Shown: positions 2,279-47,334 of the stretch, in pieces
Numbering within the stretch: the stretch's first letter is position 1
How the letters are laid out: each line of letters starts with the position of its first letter
Source: Escherichia coli
GTDB lineage: Bacteria > Pseudomonadota > Gammaproteobacteria > Enterobacterales > Enterobacteriaceae
DNA length: 64,000 nucleotides
Direction: 5' to 3' (one strand)
NCBI RefSeq assembly: GCF_044324785.1
Contig: NZ_CP172127.1
Made by a program: the position numbers and the translations under genes
Notes under the pieces: model-generated
What the model was told of the DNA's origin: nothing
The model's database searches: none
The model's input: only the letters and a program-made list of their open reading frames with translations

Positions 2279-2620
2279 ATGATGAAAAAAAGTATTCTGG
2301 CGTTTCTGTTACTCACCAGTTCTGCAGCGGCGCTGGCTGCACCGCAGGTGATTACCGTCAGCCGTTTTGAAGTGGGTAAAGACAAATGGGCGTTTAATCG
2401 CGAAGAGGTGATGCTGACTTGCCGACCGGGTAATGCTTTGTATGTCATTAACCCAAGTACCCTCGTGCAGTATCCGTTAAACGATATTGCACAAAAGGAA
2501 GTCGCCAGCGGGAAGACTAAAGCCCAGCCCATTTCGGTGATTCAGATTGATGATCCTAACAATCCCGGCGAAAAAATGAGTCTGGCACCGTTTATAGAGC
2601 GAGCTGAAAAACTCTGTTAA
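2279..2620 (+). CDS. yebY: DUF2511 secreted protein YebY
   Basis: 113-aa [23 protein letters not shown]... with signal peptide; third gene of yobA-yebZ-yebY. Confidence 0.85.
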
Positions 2621-2650
2621 TTACCTAAAATAGCCTTTTGATTTCCAATA

Positions 2651-2690
2651 AAAAACCGCCTCAGCTCTTTCACCAGAACGGGCGGTTTTT
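2651..2690. terminator. Bidirectional intrinsic terminator (yebY on +, RyeA on -)
   Basis: aaaaaccgcc...ggcggttttt: GC stem flanked by A-tract upstream and T-tract downstream, so a U-run follows the hairpin on either strand. Confidence 0.5.
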
Positions 2691-2763
2691 AACATTTAAG
2701 CTGATGACCACCGCGCTTTTTATTGACCATTTTGCACGCAAACTGGAAAACCTGGCGTCGTCA

Positions 2764-2774
2764 TCTATTCTTAA
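2764..2774 (+). promoter_or_regulatory. Sigma-S type extended -10 element for sdsR
   Basis: TCTATTCTTAA matches the RpoS extended -10 consensus (TCTATACTTAA) at 10 of 11 positions, placed to start transcription at about 2778. Confidence 0.5.
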
Positions 2775-2777
2775 AGG

Positions 2778-2881
2778 GCAAGGCAACTAAGCCTGCATTA
2801 ATGCCAACTTTTAGCGCACGGCTCTCTCCCAAGAGCCATTTCCCTGGACCGAATACAGGAATCGTGTTCGGTCTCTTTTTA
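2778..2881 (+). ncRNA. sdsR: sRNA SdsR (RyeB), RpoS-dependent
   Basis: Sequence GCAAGGCAACTAAGCCTGCATTAATGCCAACTTTTAGCGCACGGCTCTCTCCCAAGAGCCATTTCCCTGGACCGAATACAGGAATCGTGTTCGGTCTCTTTTT recognised as SdsR; ends in hairpin CCGAA..TTCGG plus T-run; about 104 nt. Confidence 0.7.
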
Positions 2882-3014
2882 TCTGTTAAAAGCCAGAAGC
2901 ATTCCCTTCGCTGACTTTATAGTCAACCATAACACACACTCTACTGTCTGAGTCCAGCGTTTTTTAACATTCTTGTTAAGATTATGTGATCTTTAGCGCG
3001 GGAGGAAAATATTG

Positions 3015-3671
3015 ATGAAACAGCCTGCGCCCGTTTATCAGAGAATTGCGGGTCATCAATGGCGACATATCTGGCTTTCAGGCGATATACACGGTTGTCT
3101 TGAGCAGTTGCGCCGCAAATTATGGCATTGTCGTTTTGATCCGTGGCGAGATTTACTTATCTCAGTGGGAGATGTTATCGATCGTGGGCCGCAAAGTTTA
3201 CGTTGTCTGCAGTTACTGGAACAACATTGGGTTTGTGCGGTAAGAGGCAATCATGAACAGATGGCGATGGATGCGCTGACATCTCAGCAGATGTCTTTGT
3301 GGTTGATGAATGGCGGCGACTGGTTTATTGCGCTGGCAGATAATCAACAGAAACAAGCGAAAACGGCGCTGGAAAAATGTCAGCATTTGCCCTTTATTCT
3401 TGAAGTACACAGTCGCACCGGCAAACATGTTATTGCTCATGCCGATTATCCAGATGATGTTTATGAATGGCAAAAGGACGTTGATTTGCATCAGGTCTTG
3501 TGGAGCCGCTCGCGATTAGGTGAACGCCCAAAAGGGCAGGGAATTAAAGGTGCTGATCATTTCTGGTTTGGTCATACACCGTTGCGACATCGCGTGGATA
3601 TTGGCAACCTGCATTATATTGATACCGGTGCTGTCTTTGGGGGCGAACTGACTCTTGTGCAATTGCAATAA
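3015..3671 (+). CDS. pphA: Serine/threonine protein phosphatase 1 (PrpA)
   Basis: Track ORF 3012..3671 (219 aa) with the second Met giving 218 aa, MKQPAPVYQRIAGHQWRHIWLSGDIHG; calcineurin-like phosphoesterase signature GDxxDRG present (GDVIDRG). Confidence 0.9.
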   Translation: MKQPAPVYQRIAGHQWRHIWLSGDIHGCLEQLRRKLWHCRFDPWRDLLISVGDVIDRGPQSLRCLQLLEQHWVCAVRGNHEQMAMDALTSQQMSLWLMNGGDWFIALADNQQKQAKTALEKCQHLPFILEVHSRTGKHVIAHADYPDDVYEWQKDVDLHQVLWSRSRLGERPKGQGIKGADHFWFGHTPLRHRVDIGNLHYIDTGAVFGGELTLVQLQ

Positions 3672-17723: not shown

Positions 17724-18392
17724 TCCTTCCTCAATCTTGAGTAACCCCGTCGTTGAAGGGTTACTCAATTCATCCTGATTATACGCACTGCCATGGTGCA
17801 ACTGCTTCAAATTAAAACTCTGGTCTGACTTCAAATAATTATCATATTATTTATTTGCGTAACGGGATATCAGAAAAAGATATTTAGCCCATTAATTTAT
17901 TAGGATGTTTACATCGGATTTGTGATTAAGTGTGGTATTATTTATTAGCGAAACGTTTCTCTCTTGATTTTTTTGCGCATTCATCAATTTTTCTTATTTT
18001 AAATTTACAATACCTTTGGCGATTGACTTCTCTTTGGGGTGATTGATAGCCGTTAACTGACTGTTTTATGAGAAAAAGTGATATAACTTTTTATTCATTG
18101 CATAGCAGAAAATGTGATATTGCACGCACTATGTAATAACTTCTCCCATTGGCCTGGAACAACTGAACTTATTGAACTATGTTAGAAAATACGTCAGTTT
18201 AAGTATCTGCCTGAACTGGCAAGGTTAAGCACAATGATATATCGGCGCGTATTCCGTTGCATAAGTGTGCAAAAAAAGTGGAAGACGTATCGAGATTTGT
18301 GCGTCTGATCGAGACATGTTTAAAAATGGCTTGCCATAATTAACGTTGTATGTGATAACAGATTTCGGGTTAAACGAGGTACAGTTCTGTTT

Positions 18393-18536
18393 ATGTGTGG
18401 CATTTTCAGTAAAGAAGTCCTGAGTAAACACGTTGACGTTGAATACCGCTTCTCTGCCGAGCCTTATATTGGTGCCTCATGCAGTAATGTGTCAGTTTTA
18501 TCTATGTTATGCCTGCGGGCGAAGAAAACAATCTAA
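18393..18536 (+). CDS. yobF: Small protein YobF (47 aa), co-transcribed with cspC
   Basis: Hand translation [47 protein letters not shown]; stop 12 nt before the cspC start. Confidence 0.8.
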
Positions 18537-18548
18537 GGAATTTTTCAA

Positions 18549-18758
18549 ATGGCAAAGATTAAAGGTCAGGTTAAGTGGTTCAACGAGTCTAAAGGTTTTG
18601 GCTTCATTACTCCGGCTGATGGCAGCAAAGACGTGTTCGTACACTTCTCTGCTATCCAGGGTAATGGTTTCAAAACTCTGGCTGAAGGTCAGAACGTTGA
18701 GTTCGAAATTCAGGACGGTCAGAAAGGTCCGGCAGCTGTTAACGTAACAGCTATCTGA
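18549..18758 (+). CDS. cspC: Cold-shock-family protein CspC
   Basis: 69-aa [72 protein letters not shown] with RNP1/RNP2 motifs. Confidence 0.95.
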
Positions 18759-18803
18759 TCGAATCCACTGATCTGAAGTGTGAATACGCTTCAATCTCGC
18801 TAT

Positions 18804-18830
18804 AAAGCCTCGTCGAATGCGAGGCTTTTT
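18804..18830 (+). terminator. Intrinsic terminator after cspC
   Basis: aaagcctcg-tcgaatg-cgaggctttttt hairpin plus T-run. Confidence 0.8.
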
Positions 18831-18923
18831 ACTTTGCTTTCTCTTCGCTCCAGTCGTTCGGATATTTGCCCGCCGCGTGATTCGCGTTACACTTGCGGCC
18901 TTTAGTATCCTGCCGGAGTTGTC

Positions 18924-36236: not shown

Positions 36237-37922
36237 TTGAAGAAGGTTTGGCTTAACCGTTATCCCGCGGACGTTCCGACGGAGATCAACCCTGACCGTT
36301 ATCAATCTCTGGTAGATATGTTTGAGCAGTCGGTCGCGCGCTACGCCGATCAACCCGCGTTTGTGAATATGGGGGAGGTGATGACCTTCCGCAAACTGGA
36401 AGAACGCAGTCGCGCGTTTGCCGCTTATTTGCAACAAGGGTTGGGACTGAAGAAAGGCGATCGCGTTGCGTTGATGATGCCTAATTTATTGCAATATCCG
36501 GTGGCGCTGTTTGGCATTTTGCGTGCCGGGATGATTGTCGTAAACGTTAACCCGTTGTATACCCCGCGTGAACTTGAGCATCAGCTTAACGATAGCGGCG
36601 CATCGGCGATTGTTATCGTGTCTAACTTTGCCCACACTCTGGAAAAAGTGGTTGATAAAACCGCCGTTCAGCACGTAATTCTGACCCGTATGGGCGATCA
36701 GCTATCTACGGCAAAAGGCACGGTAGTCAATTTCGTTGTTAAATACATCAAGCGTCTGGTGCCGAAATACCATCTGCCAGATGCCATTTCATTTCGTAGC
36801 GCCCTGCACAACGGCTACCGGATGCAGTACGTCAAACCCGAACTGGTGCCGGAAGATTTAGCTTTCCTGCAATACACCGGCGGTACCACTGGTGTGGCGA
36901 AAGGCGCGATGCTGACTCACCGCAATATGCTGGCGAACCTGGAACAGGTTAACGCGACCTATGGTCCGCTGTTGCATCCGGGCAAAGAGCTGGTGGTGAC
37001 GGCGCTGCCGCTGTATCACATTTTTGCACTGACCATTAACTGCCTGCTGTTTATCGAACTGGGTGGGCAGAACCTGCTTATCACTAATCCGCGCGATATT
37101 CCAGGGTTGGTAAAAGAGTTAGCGAAATATCCGTTTACCGCTATCACTGGCGTTAACACCTTGTTCAATGCGTTGCTGAACAATAAAGAGTTCCAGCAGC
37201 TGGATTTCTCCAGTCTGCATCTTTCCGCAGGCGGAGGGATGCCTGTTCAGCAAGTGGTGGCAGAACGTTGGGTGAAACTGACTGGACAGTATCTGCTGGA
37301 AGGTTATGGCCTGACCGAGTGTGCGCCGCTGGTCAGCGTTAACCCGTATGATATTGATTATCATAGTGGTAGCATCGGTTTGCCGGTGCCATCGACGGAA
37401 GCCAAACTGGTGGATGACGACGACAACGAAGTACCACCGGGTCAACCGGGTGAGCTTTGTGTCAAAGGACCGCAGGTGATGCTGGGTTACTGGCAGCGTC
37501 CGGATGCTACCGATGAAATCATCAAAAATGGCTGGTTACACACCGGCGACATCGCGGTGATGGATGAAGAAGGATTCCTGCGCATTGTCGATCGTAAAAA
37601 AGACATGATTCTGGTTTCCGGTTTTAACGTCTATCCCAACGAGATTGAAGATGTCGTCATGCAGCATCCTGGCGTACAGGAAGTCGCGGCTGTTGGCGTA
37701 CCTTCCGGCTCCAGTGGTGAAGCGGTGAAAATCTTCGTAGTGAAAAAAGATCCATCGCTTACCGAAGAGTCACTGGTGACTTTTTGCCGCCGTCAGCTCA
37801 CGGGCTACAAAGTACCGAAGCTGGTGGAGTTTCGTGATGAGTTACCGAAATCTAACGTCGGAAAAATTTTGCGACGAGAATTACGTGACGAAGCGCGCGG
37901 CAAAGTGGACAATAAAGCCTGA
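36237..37922 (+). CDS. fadD: Long-chain fatty acid-CoA ligase FadD (TTG start)
   Basis: Track ORF 36171..37922 trimmed to TTG-initiated (M)[25 protein letters not shown]... (561 aa); AMP-binding motif [11 protein letters not shown] present. Confidence 0.9.
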
Positions 37923-37940
37923 GCGTTAAGTCAGTCGTCA

Positions 37941-37967
37941 GACGCCGGTTAATCCGGCGTTTTTTTT
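37941..37967 (+). terminator. Intrinsic terminator after fadD
   Basis: acgccgg-ttaat-ccggcgt hairpin followed by TTTTTTT. Confidence 0.85.
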
Positions 37968-41349: not shown

Positions 41350-42960
41350 TCAGTTGTCGCCTTTGAATACGGTTCCCGCAGGGAGCACTGGTGTTTTTTC
41401 CAGGGCTTCAACCGGTGTCTGCGGGAGATAATGTTCAACTTGATGAGCCGGAATGTCGGCGTAATCCTGTTTCAGCCAGCGAATAAATCCGCCGACTTTC
41501 ACCAGTAAAATGACGAGGAAGGGAAGGGCTGTGAGCACGACGGTGGTTTTCATCGTTTCCAGCGAAGCACCGGTAAACAAGATGGAAAGCGGGATCAGAG
41601 TGATCACCACGCACCAGAAAAGACGCAGCCCACGGTCAGGATCTTCACCTTCCTGGAGATTACGCGTACTGGTCGCCGCCATGGTGTAGGCCACCGCATC
41701 CATATGCGAGGCAAGGAAAATAATCATCACGCCCAGGTATGCGGCGAGGAACAATTTACCGGCTGGCAACGACATCAGAACTTGCTGCACAGCTGTTTCA
41801 CCGCCCAGTGTTTCCAGCACCTGTGGGACGTTGATTACGCCATTGATAAACTGATGAATGGCATAGCTTTCCATTACGCCGAAGAAGAACCAGCAACCGA
41901 CGGTGCTGCCGAGGATCAGTCCCCAGATAACTTCTTTAATCTTATGACCGCGGGAAACGCGGGTGACAAACATTGCTACGCCAGGCGTGTATGAGATCCA
42001 CCACAGCCAGTAGAAAACGGTCCAGTTGCGGGTAAATGAACCATCGCCAAGCGGATCGGTGAATAAGCTCATTTGCAGGAAGTTTTGCGTGGTCAGGCCG
42101 ATGGCATTGATGATGCTGTTGGTAATAAATTCGGTTGGACCGACAATCAGCACCAGTAATGGCAGCAGGAACGCGCCCCAGCCAACCATTTTGCTCAGAC
42201 GTTGCAAACCGTTGTTGATACCAATCCATGAGCTTAGGCAAAAAATGCCGCCGGAAAGCAGGATCACAAATGCCTGCACGGTGAAGTTATCGGGTAAACC
42301 GGTCAGTGCGGAAAGTCCACGAGTAAAGGTTGCTGCGGTGACAACAAGGGAAATAGTCAGTGCGCCGACAGTGGCGATCAGGAACATCAAATCAACCAGT
42401 TTTCCCCATGGGCCTTGCGGGCGAACGCCGGTAATCGCGGCAATAATGCCGGAAAGACTCAGACCTTTGTTTTTCCGCACATGAAAGTGATAAGCCATGA
42501 TTAATGAGGCCAGCGTATAAGTTGCCCAGGCGCTGATGCCCCAGTGGAAGAAGGAGTAAGGGACGCTAAATTCGAGTGCCTGTTGTGAACGCGGTGCGAT
42601 ATTTAATCCAGGCGTTTGATAATAATAGGCCCATTCAGCAACCCCCCAATAAAGCGTAGAAGAACCTAAACCGGCACAAATAAACATAAACAGCCAGGAG
42701 AGCGTGCTGTATTCCGGTTTTCCTTCGCCAAGACGAATATTGCCGTATTTACTGGTGGCTAAATAAATCACCAGTCCCATTGCCAGCAAAACCAATACCT
42801 GTACGGCGGAACCTAACGTACGCGTAACAAAAGTGTATATTGCGTTGGCCGCGTCGGCCGATTGTTGTGGGAAAAGGCTTAATGCAGCTGCGATGAAAAG
42901 AATGGCCACCAGGCTGATGCTTATCAGCGGCACATCTTTTTTCTTAACATTGCTCATCAT
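41350..42960 (-). CDS. yeaV: BCCT-family transporter YeaV (probable carnitine/betaine-type carrier)
   Basis: 536-aa polytopic ORF; N-terminal region resembles CaiT/BetT-type BCCT carriers from the first Met, so the full ORF is kept; exact start uncertain. Confidence 0.8.
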
Positions 42961-43210
42961 GAGTCATCTCCTGGGCATAAAAGCCCGTCTCTGGCTTTTG
43001 CCAGTTGTAATTATTTGCAGGGTAATGAGTTGTATGTTGTGTTTAACAAATTGATTATTTGCATGTTACATAAATTAAACAATTAAGAATACGGAAAGCC
43101 ATAAAACACGAAACGGAAACAATAAAAGGTGAAATGACGCAGGTTATTAACTGCAAAGAACGAATAAAAAAACCGCGTCAGTGACGCGGTTCAAATAAAC
43201 TGGTTTGACC

Positions 43211-45379: not shown

Positions 45380-46087
<708 letters not shown>

Positions 46088-46170
46088 TACTTTCAGCCCG
46101 CGTTGTCGCGGGCTTCCCATCTGTAATCCTCCCTGATTCTTCTCTGATATGGTGCTAAAAAGTAACCAAT

Positions 46171-46193
46171 AAATGGTATTTAAAATGCAAATT
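46171..46193 (+). promoter_or_regulatory. Candidate NsrR operator upstream of yeaR
   Basis: AAATGGTATTTAAAATGCAAATT resembles the NsrR inverted repeat (AANATGCATTT-N-AAATGCATNTT); about 70-90 nt upstream of yeaR, a known NsrR target. Confidence 0.4.
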
Positions 46194-46259
46194 ATCAGGC
46201 GTACCCTGAAACGGCTGGAATAAACCATTTTCAGCGCATTCACCGAAGGAGGGAAAAGG

Positions 46260-46619
46260 ATGCTGCAAATCCCACAGAATTATATTCATACGCGCTCAAC
46301 GCCTTTCTGGAATAAACAAACTGCGCCTGCCGGAATATTCGAACGTCATCTTGATAAAGGAACGCGCCCGGGAGTTTACCCACGCCTTTCCGTTATGCAT
46401 GGGGCGGTCAAATATCTCGGCTACCCTGATGAACACAGTGCAGAGCCTGATCAAGTGATCCTTATCGAAGCGGGGCAGTTTGCGGTGTTCCCTCCAGAAA
46501 AGTGGCACAACATTGAAGCCATGACTGACGATACTTATTTCAACATTGACTTCTTCGTTGCCCCTGAAGTCCTGATGGAAGGTGCGCAACAACGGAAAGT
46601 CATTCATAACGGGAAATGA
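46260..46619 (+). CDS. yeaR: DUF1971 protein YeaR
   Basis: 119-aa ORF MLQIPQNYIHTRSTPFWNKQTAPAGIFERHLDKGTRPGVYPRLSVMHG... Confidence 0.85.
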   Translation: MLQIPQNYIHTRSTPFWNKQTAPAGIFERHLDKGTRPGVYPRLSVMHGAVKYLGYPDEHSAEPDQVILIEAGQFAVFPPEKWHNIEAMTDDTYFNIDFFVAPEVLMEGAQQRKVIHNGK

Positions 46620-46622
46620 ATC

Positions 46623-46805
46623 ATGGGCAAAGCAACGTATACCGTGACCGTCACCAATAACAGCAATGGCGTTTCTGTCGATTATGAAACAGAGACGCCG
46701 ATGACTTTGCTGGTGCCAGAAGTGGCGGCTGAAGTGATAAAAGATCTGGTGAATACCGTGCGTTCTTATGACACGGAAAACGAACATGATGTTTGTGGTT
46801 GGTAA
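46623..46805 (+). CDS. yoaG: Small protein YoaG (60 aa)
   Basis: 60-aa ORF MGKATYTVTVTNNSNGVSVDYETETPMTLLVPEVAAEVIKDLVNTVRSYDTENEHDVCGW; 3 nt after the yeaR stop. Confidence 0.8.
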   Translation: MGKATYTVTVTNNSNGVSVDYETETPMTLLVPEVAAEVIKDLVNTVRSYDTENEHDVCGW

Positions 46806-46952
46806 TTATCTCTGATCGTTGATGGCGCAATTTCTGCGCCATCGCAAAAAAATCCTCCGTGATGCTCGTCACAAATTTTGCCCTCCCGATGTTGTGCTAT
46901 GCTTTTTATCAGCGACTAACCCGCTAATGCAAAACAGATAAGTGAGGAAACA

Positions 46953-47201
46953 ATGGGCATTCTGTCATGGATTATTTTTGGGCTTATTGCCGGTATTCTG
47001 GCGAAGTGGATCATGCCAGGTAAAGATGGTGGTGGATTCTTTATGACTATCCTGCTGGGGATAGTCGGTGCCGTAGTCGGCGGATGGATCAGCACGCTGT
47101 TTGGCTTTGGTAAAGTCGATGGCTTCAATTTTGGCAGCTTCGTGGTTGCCGTTATTGGCGCGATTGTCGTGCTGTTTATCTACAGAAAGATTAAAAGTTA
47201 A
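46953..47201 (+). CDS. yeaQ: GlsB/YeaQ/YmgE-family small membrane protein YeaQ
   Basis: 82-aa ORF MGILSWIIFGLIAGILAKWIMPGKDGGGFFMTILLGIVGAVVGGWISTLFGF... Confidence 0.85.
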   Translation: MGILSWIIFGLIAGILAKWIMPGKDGGGFFMTILLGIVGAVVGGWISTLFGFGKVDGFNFGSFVVAVIGAIVVLFIYRKIKS

Positions 47202-47214
47202 CGTTTAAATTGCA

Positions 47215-47248
47215 CAAAGGCTGCACACAGGCAGCCTTTGCTATTTTC
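47215..47248 (+). terminator. Intrinsic terminator after yeaQ
   Basis: caaaggctgc-acacag-gcagcctttg hairpin followed by ctattttc. Confidence 0.7.
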
Positions 47249-47259
47249 TAGATGTGACG

Positions 47260-47334
47260 TTACCACCATCCCAGCTCAGTGCCGAGTACGACAATAATCG
47301 CCACACCCATCATAATAATCGTTGTTTTTTTCAT
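47260..47334 (-). CDS. yoaJ: Tiny hydrophobic protein YoaJ (24 aa)
   Basis: Hand translation of minus strand MKKTTIIMMGVAIIVVLGTELGWW; start 2 nt after the yoaK stop. Confidence 0.7.
   Translation of the reverse strand: MKKTTIIMMGVAIIVVLGTELGWW

Follow-up and report, generated by a model that had tools for sequence, protein, structure and literature searches.

The yeaR-yoaG locus and its counterpart in K-12

The window analyzed here, a 64-kb stretch of Escherichia coli DNA, is collinear with K-12 MG1655 from 1,925,984 to 1,862,212 in reverse orientation, at 98.1-98.5% identity, and carries the gene pair yeaR-yoaG together with the promoter elements and neighbors listed in Table 1. An 851-nt query spanning the yeaR-yoaG region found a match in 5419 of 5426 complete E. 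coli genomes, and the RefSeq annotation under the match names leuE, yeaR (DUF1971) and yoaG (DUF1869). The gene names and the operon structure given in a sequence-only reading of this DNA were thus borne out, with RefSeq, Pfam and PDB in agreement. The locus is that of the K-12 yeaR-yoaG operon (b1797-b1796), with the same synteny, dmlR-leuE-yeaR-yoaG-yeaQ, and the K-12 yeaR promoter is identical to the one found here in its NarL and NsrR sites, in the inferred -35 and -10 elements and in the ribosome-binding site. The control region 46144-46226 (-70 to +13) shows no differences from K-12, and the four SNPs in the leuE-yeaR intergenic region (46089, 46123, 46143 and 46227) all fall outside the control elements. 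Along with an A56P exchange in YeaR, these flanking SNPs constitute allelic differences only, and no functional difference is expected.

We are confident that the feature is the yeaR-yoaG operon of the E. coli chromosome, together with the composite control region already known for it. The operon and its published NsrR and NarL control sites are already known and well studied: the operon itself, the NsrR operator, the NarL site and the induction by nitrate, nitrite and NO have been in print since 2007, a cryo-EM structure of the yeaR promoter exists, and the promoter has been employed as an in vivo sensor of nitrate and inflammation. NsrR dependence and NO/nitrate induction of yeaR-yoaG are essentially covered by the literature, and their recovery in this window carries little discovery value.

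Table 1. Coordinates of the genes and sequence elements at the yeaR-yoaG locus (window positions), with the two-copy loci of other species in the last line (positions within each locus).
Feature	Position	Strand	Basis or remark
leuE, LysE-type exporter	45449-46087		upstream of yeaR
NarL 7-2-7 activator site TAACCAATAAATGGTA, centered at -43.5	46163-46178	.	identical to the cryo-EM site; same in K-12
NsrR operator (predicted), 11-1-11, AAATGGTATTT-A-AAATGCAAATT	46171-46193	.	published 23-mer, matrix score, conservation
Inferred weak -35 hexamer, TTTAAA	46179-46184	+	derived from NarL center at -43.5
Inferred -10 hexamer, TACCCT, 17-nt spacer	46202-46207	+	calculated from the published center at -43.5
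Strong ribosome-binding site of yeaR, GAAGGAGGG	46245-46253	+	6-nt spacing
yeaR, 119 aa, DUF1971, small cupin-like beta-barrel	46260-46619	+	Pfam PF09313, PDB 3BB6, Foldseek
Spacer ATC, 3 nt, yeaR stop to yoaG start	46620-46622	+	direct reading
yoaG, 60 aa, DUF1869, preceded by a weak ribosome-binding site, UAACGGGAA	46623-46805	+	Pfam PF08956, PDB 1NEI
10-bp G+C-rich hairpin followed by A7, not a U-run	46820-46844	+	15 nt past the yoaG stop
yeaQ, 82-aa membrane protein	46953-47201		downstream of yoaG
Two-copy loci (tandem yeaR paralogues before yoaG): L020, L028, L030-L038, L040-L043, L045-L047, L049-L057, L059-L062, L064-L066, L068, L071, L072, L074	about 2285-3000 in each		

The YeaR and YoaG proteins

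Both products were assigned to their families above the Pfam gathering score, YeaR to Pfam PF09313 (79.7 bits against a cut-off of 23.1; E = 1.7e-22) and YoaG to PF08956 (113.3 bits against a cut-off of 21.3; E = 4.7e-33). YoaG is identical over 60/60 residues to the protein in PDB 1NEI, and likewise to K-12 YoaG, and YeaR matches PDB 3BB6 at 118/119 residues (E = 9.4e-81), residue 56 being the sole difference. At this codon (46425-46427) proline stands here in place of the alanine of K-12 and 3BB6. Since other genera commonly have proline at this position in their copy-2 paralogues, within an FPD motif, Pro56 is probably a neutral natural variant.

A Foldseek search with the YeaR model returned 3BB6 at a target-normalized TM-score of 0.96, followed by Vibrio 3DL3 and the N-domain of 3M70, and beyond the DUF1971 structures many cupins at marginal E-values near 1e-3; with the YoaG part, 1NEI alone was found at E ≤ 1e-3. 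The TehB-type DUF1971 proteins, namely 3DL3 from Vibrio and 3M70, the N-terminal domain of H. influenzae TehB, share the small beta-barrel fold of YeaR, with phmmer E-values of 7e-20 and 4e-6 and target-normalized TM-scores of up to 0.93. Whereas TehB has a SAM-dependent methyltransferase domain, YeaR is a stand-alone domain, and it is YeaR, not TehB, that is paired with YoaG. No tellurite phenotype for YeaR is documented in the literature examined. The invariant residues among 103 YeaR-type sequences are glycines, prolines and phenylalanines, and H83 and E86 of YeaR are conserved in at least 90% of 41 aligned rows. In YoaG, the invariant positions form the motifs TNNSNG and YDTE and a C-terminal VCGW.

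Translation of yoaG behind yeaR

The sequence and the list of open reading frames confirm that yoaG encodes 60 residues and begins 3 nt after yeaR, as the sequence-only reading had stated: the yeaR stop TGA (46617-46619) is followed by ATC and the yoaG ATG. The two ribosome-binding sites differ markedly in strength, the predicted duplex with the anti-Shine-Dalgarno sequence reaching -12.2 kcal/mol for GAAGGAGGG of yeaR versus -4.3 kcal/mol for UAACGGGAA of yoaG, and the mRNA leader before yeaR would measure approximately 46 nt. A scan of 46000-47300 found no promoter-like or terminator-like sites between yeaR and yoaG. Because the gap is only 3 nt and the yoaG ribosome-binding site is weak, ribosomes that have just finished yeaR probably account for most of the translation of yoaG. 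In most other genera, however, a perfect AAGGAG lies within the last yeaR codons.

Conservation and possible partnership of the gene pair

We scanned one genome per species for yoaG homologues and obtained 76 loci, of which 75 were usable after a 264-bp contig had been dropped. The dropped contig (L073; NZ_NUZU01000116.1), from a 'Bacillus sp.' assembly, holds a yoaG fragment that is 85% identical to the E. coli protein, and most likely represents enterobacterial contamination of the Bacillus assembly. In 73 of the 75 loci, the spacing between the end of a yeaR-type ORF and the start of yoaG ranges from an 8-nt overlap to a 15-nt gap, the most common gaps being 3 nt (28 loci) and 4 nt (17 loci). 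Close adjacency fails in one locus with a 114-nt gap (L044) and in one where yoaG stands alone (L075), the latter being the only clear exception to yeaR-yoaG adjacency. This solitary homologue, of 61 aa (2998-3183 in the locus, from Enterobacteriaceae bacterium RIT693), is flanked by rne and flgL, and no gene of the yeaR type occurs within 1.5 kb. An apparent 175-aa YeaR-YoaG fusion in two Leclercia loci (L058 and L063) was rejected; both contain a real TAG stop and a 15-nt spacer with AAGGAG.

In about half of the loci (37), yoaG is preceded by two yeaR paralogues in tandem, and the genera with this arrangement include Enterobacter, Kluyvera, Lelliottia, Cedecea, Pseudocitrobacter and Silvania. 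Copy 1 has 108 aa, shares 70-79% identity with E. coli YeaR and is missing the final ~14 residues. Copy 2, with 117 aa, has the C-terminal tail and is mostly 54-60% identical to E. coli YeaR (38-42% in three outliers). In two-copy loci, it is always the tailed copy that adjoins yoaG.

Whether this adjacency reflects a shared function has to be weighed against the reading that yeaR and yoaG are co-transcribed neighbors with independent functions, the short gap being a matter of genome compaction and implying neither functional nor physical partnership. We consider independence a real possibility, though one we would not bet on. It draws on the existence of DUF1971 proteins without YoaG (Vibrio 3DL3 and the TehB N-domain 3M70), on the one species with a solitary yoaG, and on genetic data from UTI89, where deletion of yeaR lowers type 1 piliation and the yeaR deletion alone gave the same piliation phenotype as deletion of the whole locus. 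Structure prediction is also in keeping with independence. We ran AlphaFold2 on a YeaR-(GGGGS)6-YoaG fusion with a paired alignment of the yoaG-adjacent YeaR and the YoaG of 41 species, and the resulting model had a pTM of 0.49 and no ordered interface, as obtained from a shallow alignment of 41 rows, without an error map, and for a YoaG that is present as two chains in 1NEI. The pLDDT was 85-93 for the YeaR barrel and 64-77 for YoaG, and fell below 50 in the YeaR tail (108-119), the linker and the YoaG C-terminus. Against independence stands the very narrow distribution of the YoaG family, which comprises 227 clusters at 90% identity among 5.8 billion proteins, every named one from Enterobacterales, and the position of yoaG directly behind a full-length, tailed yeaR-type gene in the 73 loci above, irrespective of whether a second, tail-less paralogue is present.

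The sequence-only reading had taken the 3-nt gap to indicate tight coupling of the two proteins. This holds for conserved adjacency and, probably, for translational coupling, while AlphaFold2 lends no support to a defined YeaR-YoaG complex; the prediction is a weak negative only, because the alignment was shallow, the error map was absent and YoaG is deposited as two chains. With regard to function, a CFT073 yeaR-yoaG mutant keeps the novel anaerobic NO-consuming activity, and a whole-word literature search for yoaG from 2016 onwards returned no paper assigning a biochemical function. Our best guess is that YeaR and YoaG act jointly in coping with nitrosative damage and not in NO removal. The near-constant position of yoaG after a tailed yeaR gene and the presence of two yeaR copies in many Enterobacteriaceae provide modest handles on what the two proteins do.

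The downstream end of the transcript

The segment 46800-46875, which spans the hairpin past yoaG, folds as RNA with -20.9 kcal/mol (z = -3.4), a value equalled by none of 200 shuffles. The terminator scan did not call the hairpin, and the first canonical terminator on the + strand was found at 47215-47240, after yeaQ. Because A7 replaces the U-run, the hairpin is not a canonical terminator on either strand; it is a candidate 3' end or stabilizer of the transcript. It is overlapped by a 40-aa ORF at 46819-46941.

The gene further downstream, yeaQ, directly follows yoaG in Escherichia only, is 1.3 kb away in Salmonella, and is missing from the locus elsewhere, and it therefore falls outside the conserved unit. 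A longer transcription unit, in which yeaR, yoaG, the 40-aa ORF and yeaQ would form one operon, is in our view unlikely. It would be in keeping with the absence of a canonical terminator between yoaG and yeaQ and with the expression of c2201, which, judging by its neighboring locus number, is presumably the small ORF right after yoaG, and which rose 142-fold alongside yoaG in CFT073. A four-gene operon has also been hypothesized (PMC4959519); however, yeaQ and the 40-aa ORF were not up-regulated under conditions where yeaR and yoaG rose more than 30-fold (PMC4959519), a stable hairpin follows yoaG, and yeaQ has a ribosome-binding site of its own, besides being placed behind yoaG in a single genus.

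The NarL site and the yeaR promoter

The upstream element TAACCAATAAATGGTA agrees at 10/14 positions with the NarL consensus of two inverted TACYYMT-type heptamers at 2-bp spacing. It is the NarL 7-2-7 site of the yeaR promoter, centered at -43.5, on which a NarL dimer was seen bound in the NarL-RNAP complex resolved by cryo-EM (PMC10853779; for the position, also PMC7419079). At this sigma-70 promoter, whose -35 element was termed 'intrinsically weak' (PMC10853779), phospho-NarL, which conveys the nitrate or nitrite signal, binds as a dimer and recruits RNA polymerase via the alpha C-terminal domain, and the single 7-2-7 suffices, such that NarL activates the yeaR promoter alone, without Fnr (PMC10853779, PMC7419079). 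Counting from the published center, we place the transcription start near 46214. A scan of 46000-47300 for consensus sigma-70 promoters found none, as expected for an activator-dependent promoter. In addition, Squire and colleagues reportedly observed in 2009 that Fis lowers yeaR expression in rich medium by competing with, or displacing, NarL. The sequence-only reading did not include the better-characterized half of the control region, namely repression by Fis and the 7-2-7 activator site at which NarL overlaps NsrR.

During anaerobic growth on nitrate, yoaG and yeaR of CFT073 were up 168-fold and 160-fold, respectively, and both genes were up more than 30-fold in intracellular bladder communities (PMC4959519), which puts them among the most strongly induced genes of uropathogenic E. 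coli under these two conditions. The yeaR promoter also switches on in the mouse gut, and Salmonella yoaG is NO-responsive and tracks NO levels on plants.

The predicted NsrR operator and its overlap with the NarL site

The imperfect inverted repeat AAATGGTATTTAAAATGCAAATT that the sequence-only reading had pointed out upstream of yeaR was located at 46171-46193, 89 nt upstream of the yeaR ATG. Taken simply as an inverted repeat of the 11-1-11 type, it has 8/11 complementary positions, and because 106 positions in the 64-kb window equal this, the palindrome per se is not significant. We scored it with a palindromized NsrR matrix built from the 16 ChIP-seq-positive 11-1-11 sites of Mehta et al. 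2015 (PMC5320621, Table 4), with yeaR excluded. The 23-mer scored 21.2 bits, within the range of the training sites (12.9-30.4), and ranked first in the window, the runner-up reaching 10.9 bits; block-shuffling the window 300 times never produced such a score, and shuffling the 172-nt intergenic region 20,000 times produced it once. By direct reading, the right half-site matches the consensus AAATGCATCTT at 9/11 positions and the left half, taken as its reverse complement, matches poorly, at 7/11 (half-site consensus AAGATGCATTT). We conclude that the 23-mer is a predicted NsrR 11-1-11 operator, and the NsrR-like operator proposed by the sequence-only reading is letter for letter the published NsrR site of yeaR, tabulated as a predicted site in CFT073 (PMC5320621, Table 4). 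Regulation of yeaR-yoaG by NsrR and NarL is described in the same study and elsewhere (PMC5320621, PMC4959519). A result to the contrary is that NsrR ChIP-seq of CFT073 showed no peak for yeaR; the authors consider this a false negative (PMC5320621).

Since the NarL site is centered at -43.5, the 23-mer extends from -43 to -21 with its center at -32; it covers the -35 hexamer and shares 8 bp with the right NarL heptamer. Lin, Bledsoe and Stewart are said to have placed the NsrR operator of yeaR at -32 in 2007. Judged by this arrangement, the operator overlaps core promoter elements, so that binding would block initiation. NsrR is an Rrf2-family dimer with an iron-sulphur cluster. On 46171-46193, holo-NsrR would exclude both NarL and sigma region 4, and NO would nitrosylate the iron-sulphur cluster, upon which NsrR would leave its operator. 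Full induction would accordingly take two signals, NO for derepression and nitrate or nitrite for activation, because NsrR would shut out NarL and sigma region 4 until removed by NO, and the promoter would read nitrate/nitrite and NO via overlapping sites.

Other members of the NsrR regulon (ytfE, hmp, hcp-hcr and ygbA) likewise carry a 23-bp site of the type AAGATGCATTT-N-AAATGCATCTT over the core promoter and are derepressed by NO. Unlike these, the yeaR operator of Escherichia, Citrobacter and Salmonella has a degraded left half and belongs to an Fnr-independent promoter. The left half is degraded because its bases are shared with the NarL activator site, and the promoter may therefore integrate nitrate and NO at one overlapping site.

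Of 74 loci from other species, 72 have an NsrR site of at least 15 bits located 72-98 nt upstream of the first yeaR ATG, with a median score of 24.7 bits in two-copy operons versus 19.3 bits where yeaR is present once. Among the two-copy genera, the site approaches the perfect palindrome AAGATGCATTTAAAATGCACTTT, and a 7-2-7 is absent at the E. coli position; when the promoters of L003-L078 were compared, several of these genera showed one perfect NarL heptamer (TACCYCT) immediately 5' of the NsrR site. The degradation of the left NsrR half to AAATGGTATTT in Escherichia, Citrobacter and Salmonella coincides exactly with the overlap by the NarL heptamer. It is most improbable that the 23-mer is merely a NarL site joined to an A+T-rich weak -35 element and a Fis target, with a coincidental likeness to an NsrR site and an indirect NO response of yeaR: a left half dictated by the NarL heptamer AATGGTA, an inverted repeat matched at many places in the window and the missing ChIP-seq peak would fit such a coincidence, but the matrix score is unique in 64 kb, an even better NsrR palindrome is present, equally far from the ATG, in orthologous promoters that lack the 7-2-7, and direct NsrR regulation of yeaR is cited in the literature.

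Possible origin of the E. coli arrangement

The predicted NsrR operator in its overlapped form, taken together with the paralogues, bears on how the E. coli operon may have arisen. The body of E. coli YeaR is identical to the copy-1 consensus at 83/105 positions, and its tail matches copy 2 at 6/14, copy 1 being tail-less. This pattern suggests loss of a paralogue or recombination in the lineage of Escherichia, Citrobacter and Salmonella. A chimera with a copy-1 body and a copy-2 tail fits the segment identities, and tail loss in copy 1 fits them equally well.

A more speculative scenario, which we rate as somewhat unlikely in its entirety, is that tailed YeaR and YoaG form an obligate two-protein module, and that the E. 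coli form was simplified from an operon in which a near-perfect NsrR palindrome preceded tail-less yeaR1, tailed yeaR2 and yoaG. The Escherichia/Citrobacter/Salmonella lineage would have lost one paralogue, or the two would have recombined there, and the left NsrR half would then have been overwritten by the NarL 7-2-7. If this were true, the overwriting would have turned a pure NO switch into a combined nitrate-and-NO gate.

Other features of the window

The 64-kb window contains no tRNA genes. Matches at the Rfam gathering score were found in three places: the overlapping antisense pair SraC/RyeA (- strand) and SdsR/RyeB (+ strand) at 2740-2884, a cspA-type thermoregulator leader at 18373-18833, which by position is the yobF-cspC leader, and the sRNA sroD at 37881-37966. 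All of these are at the positions expected from K-12. A segment of 224 bp at 42833-43056, which contains the 5' end of yeaV (BCCT transporter, - strand) and the sequence upstream of it, is missing from K-12 MG1655 (junction at K-12 1,883,151). Because 2930 of 5426 complete E. coli genomes have the segment, the yeaV allele of K-12 appears to be 5'-truncated.
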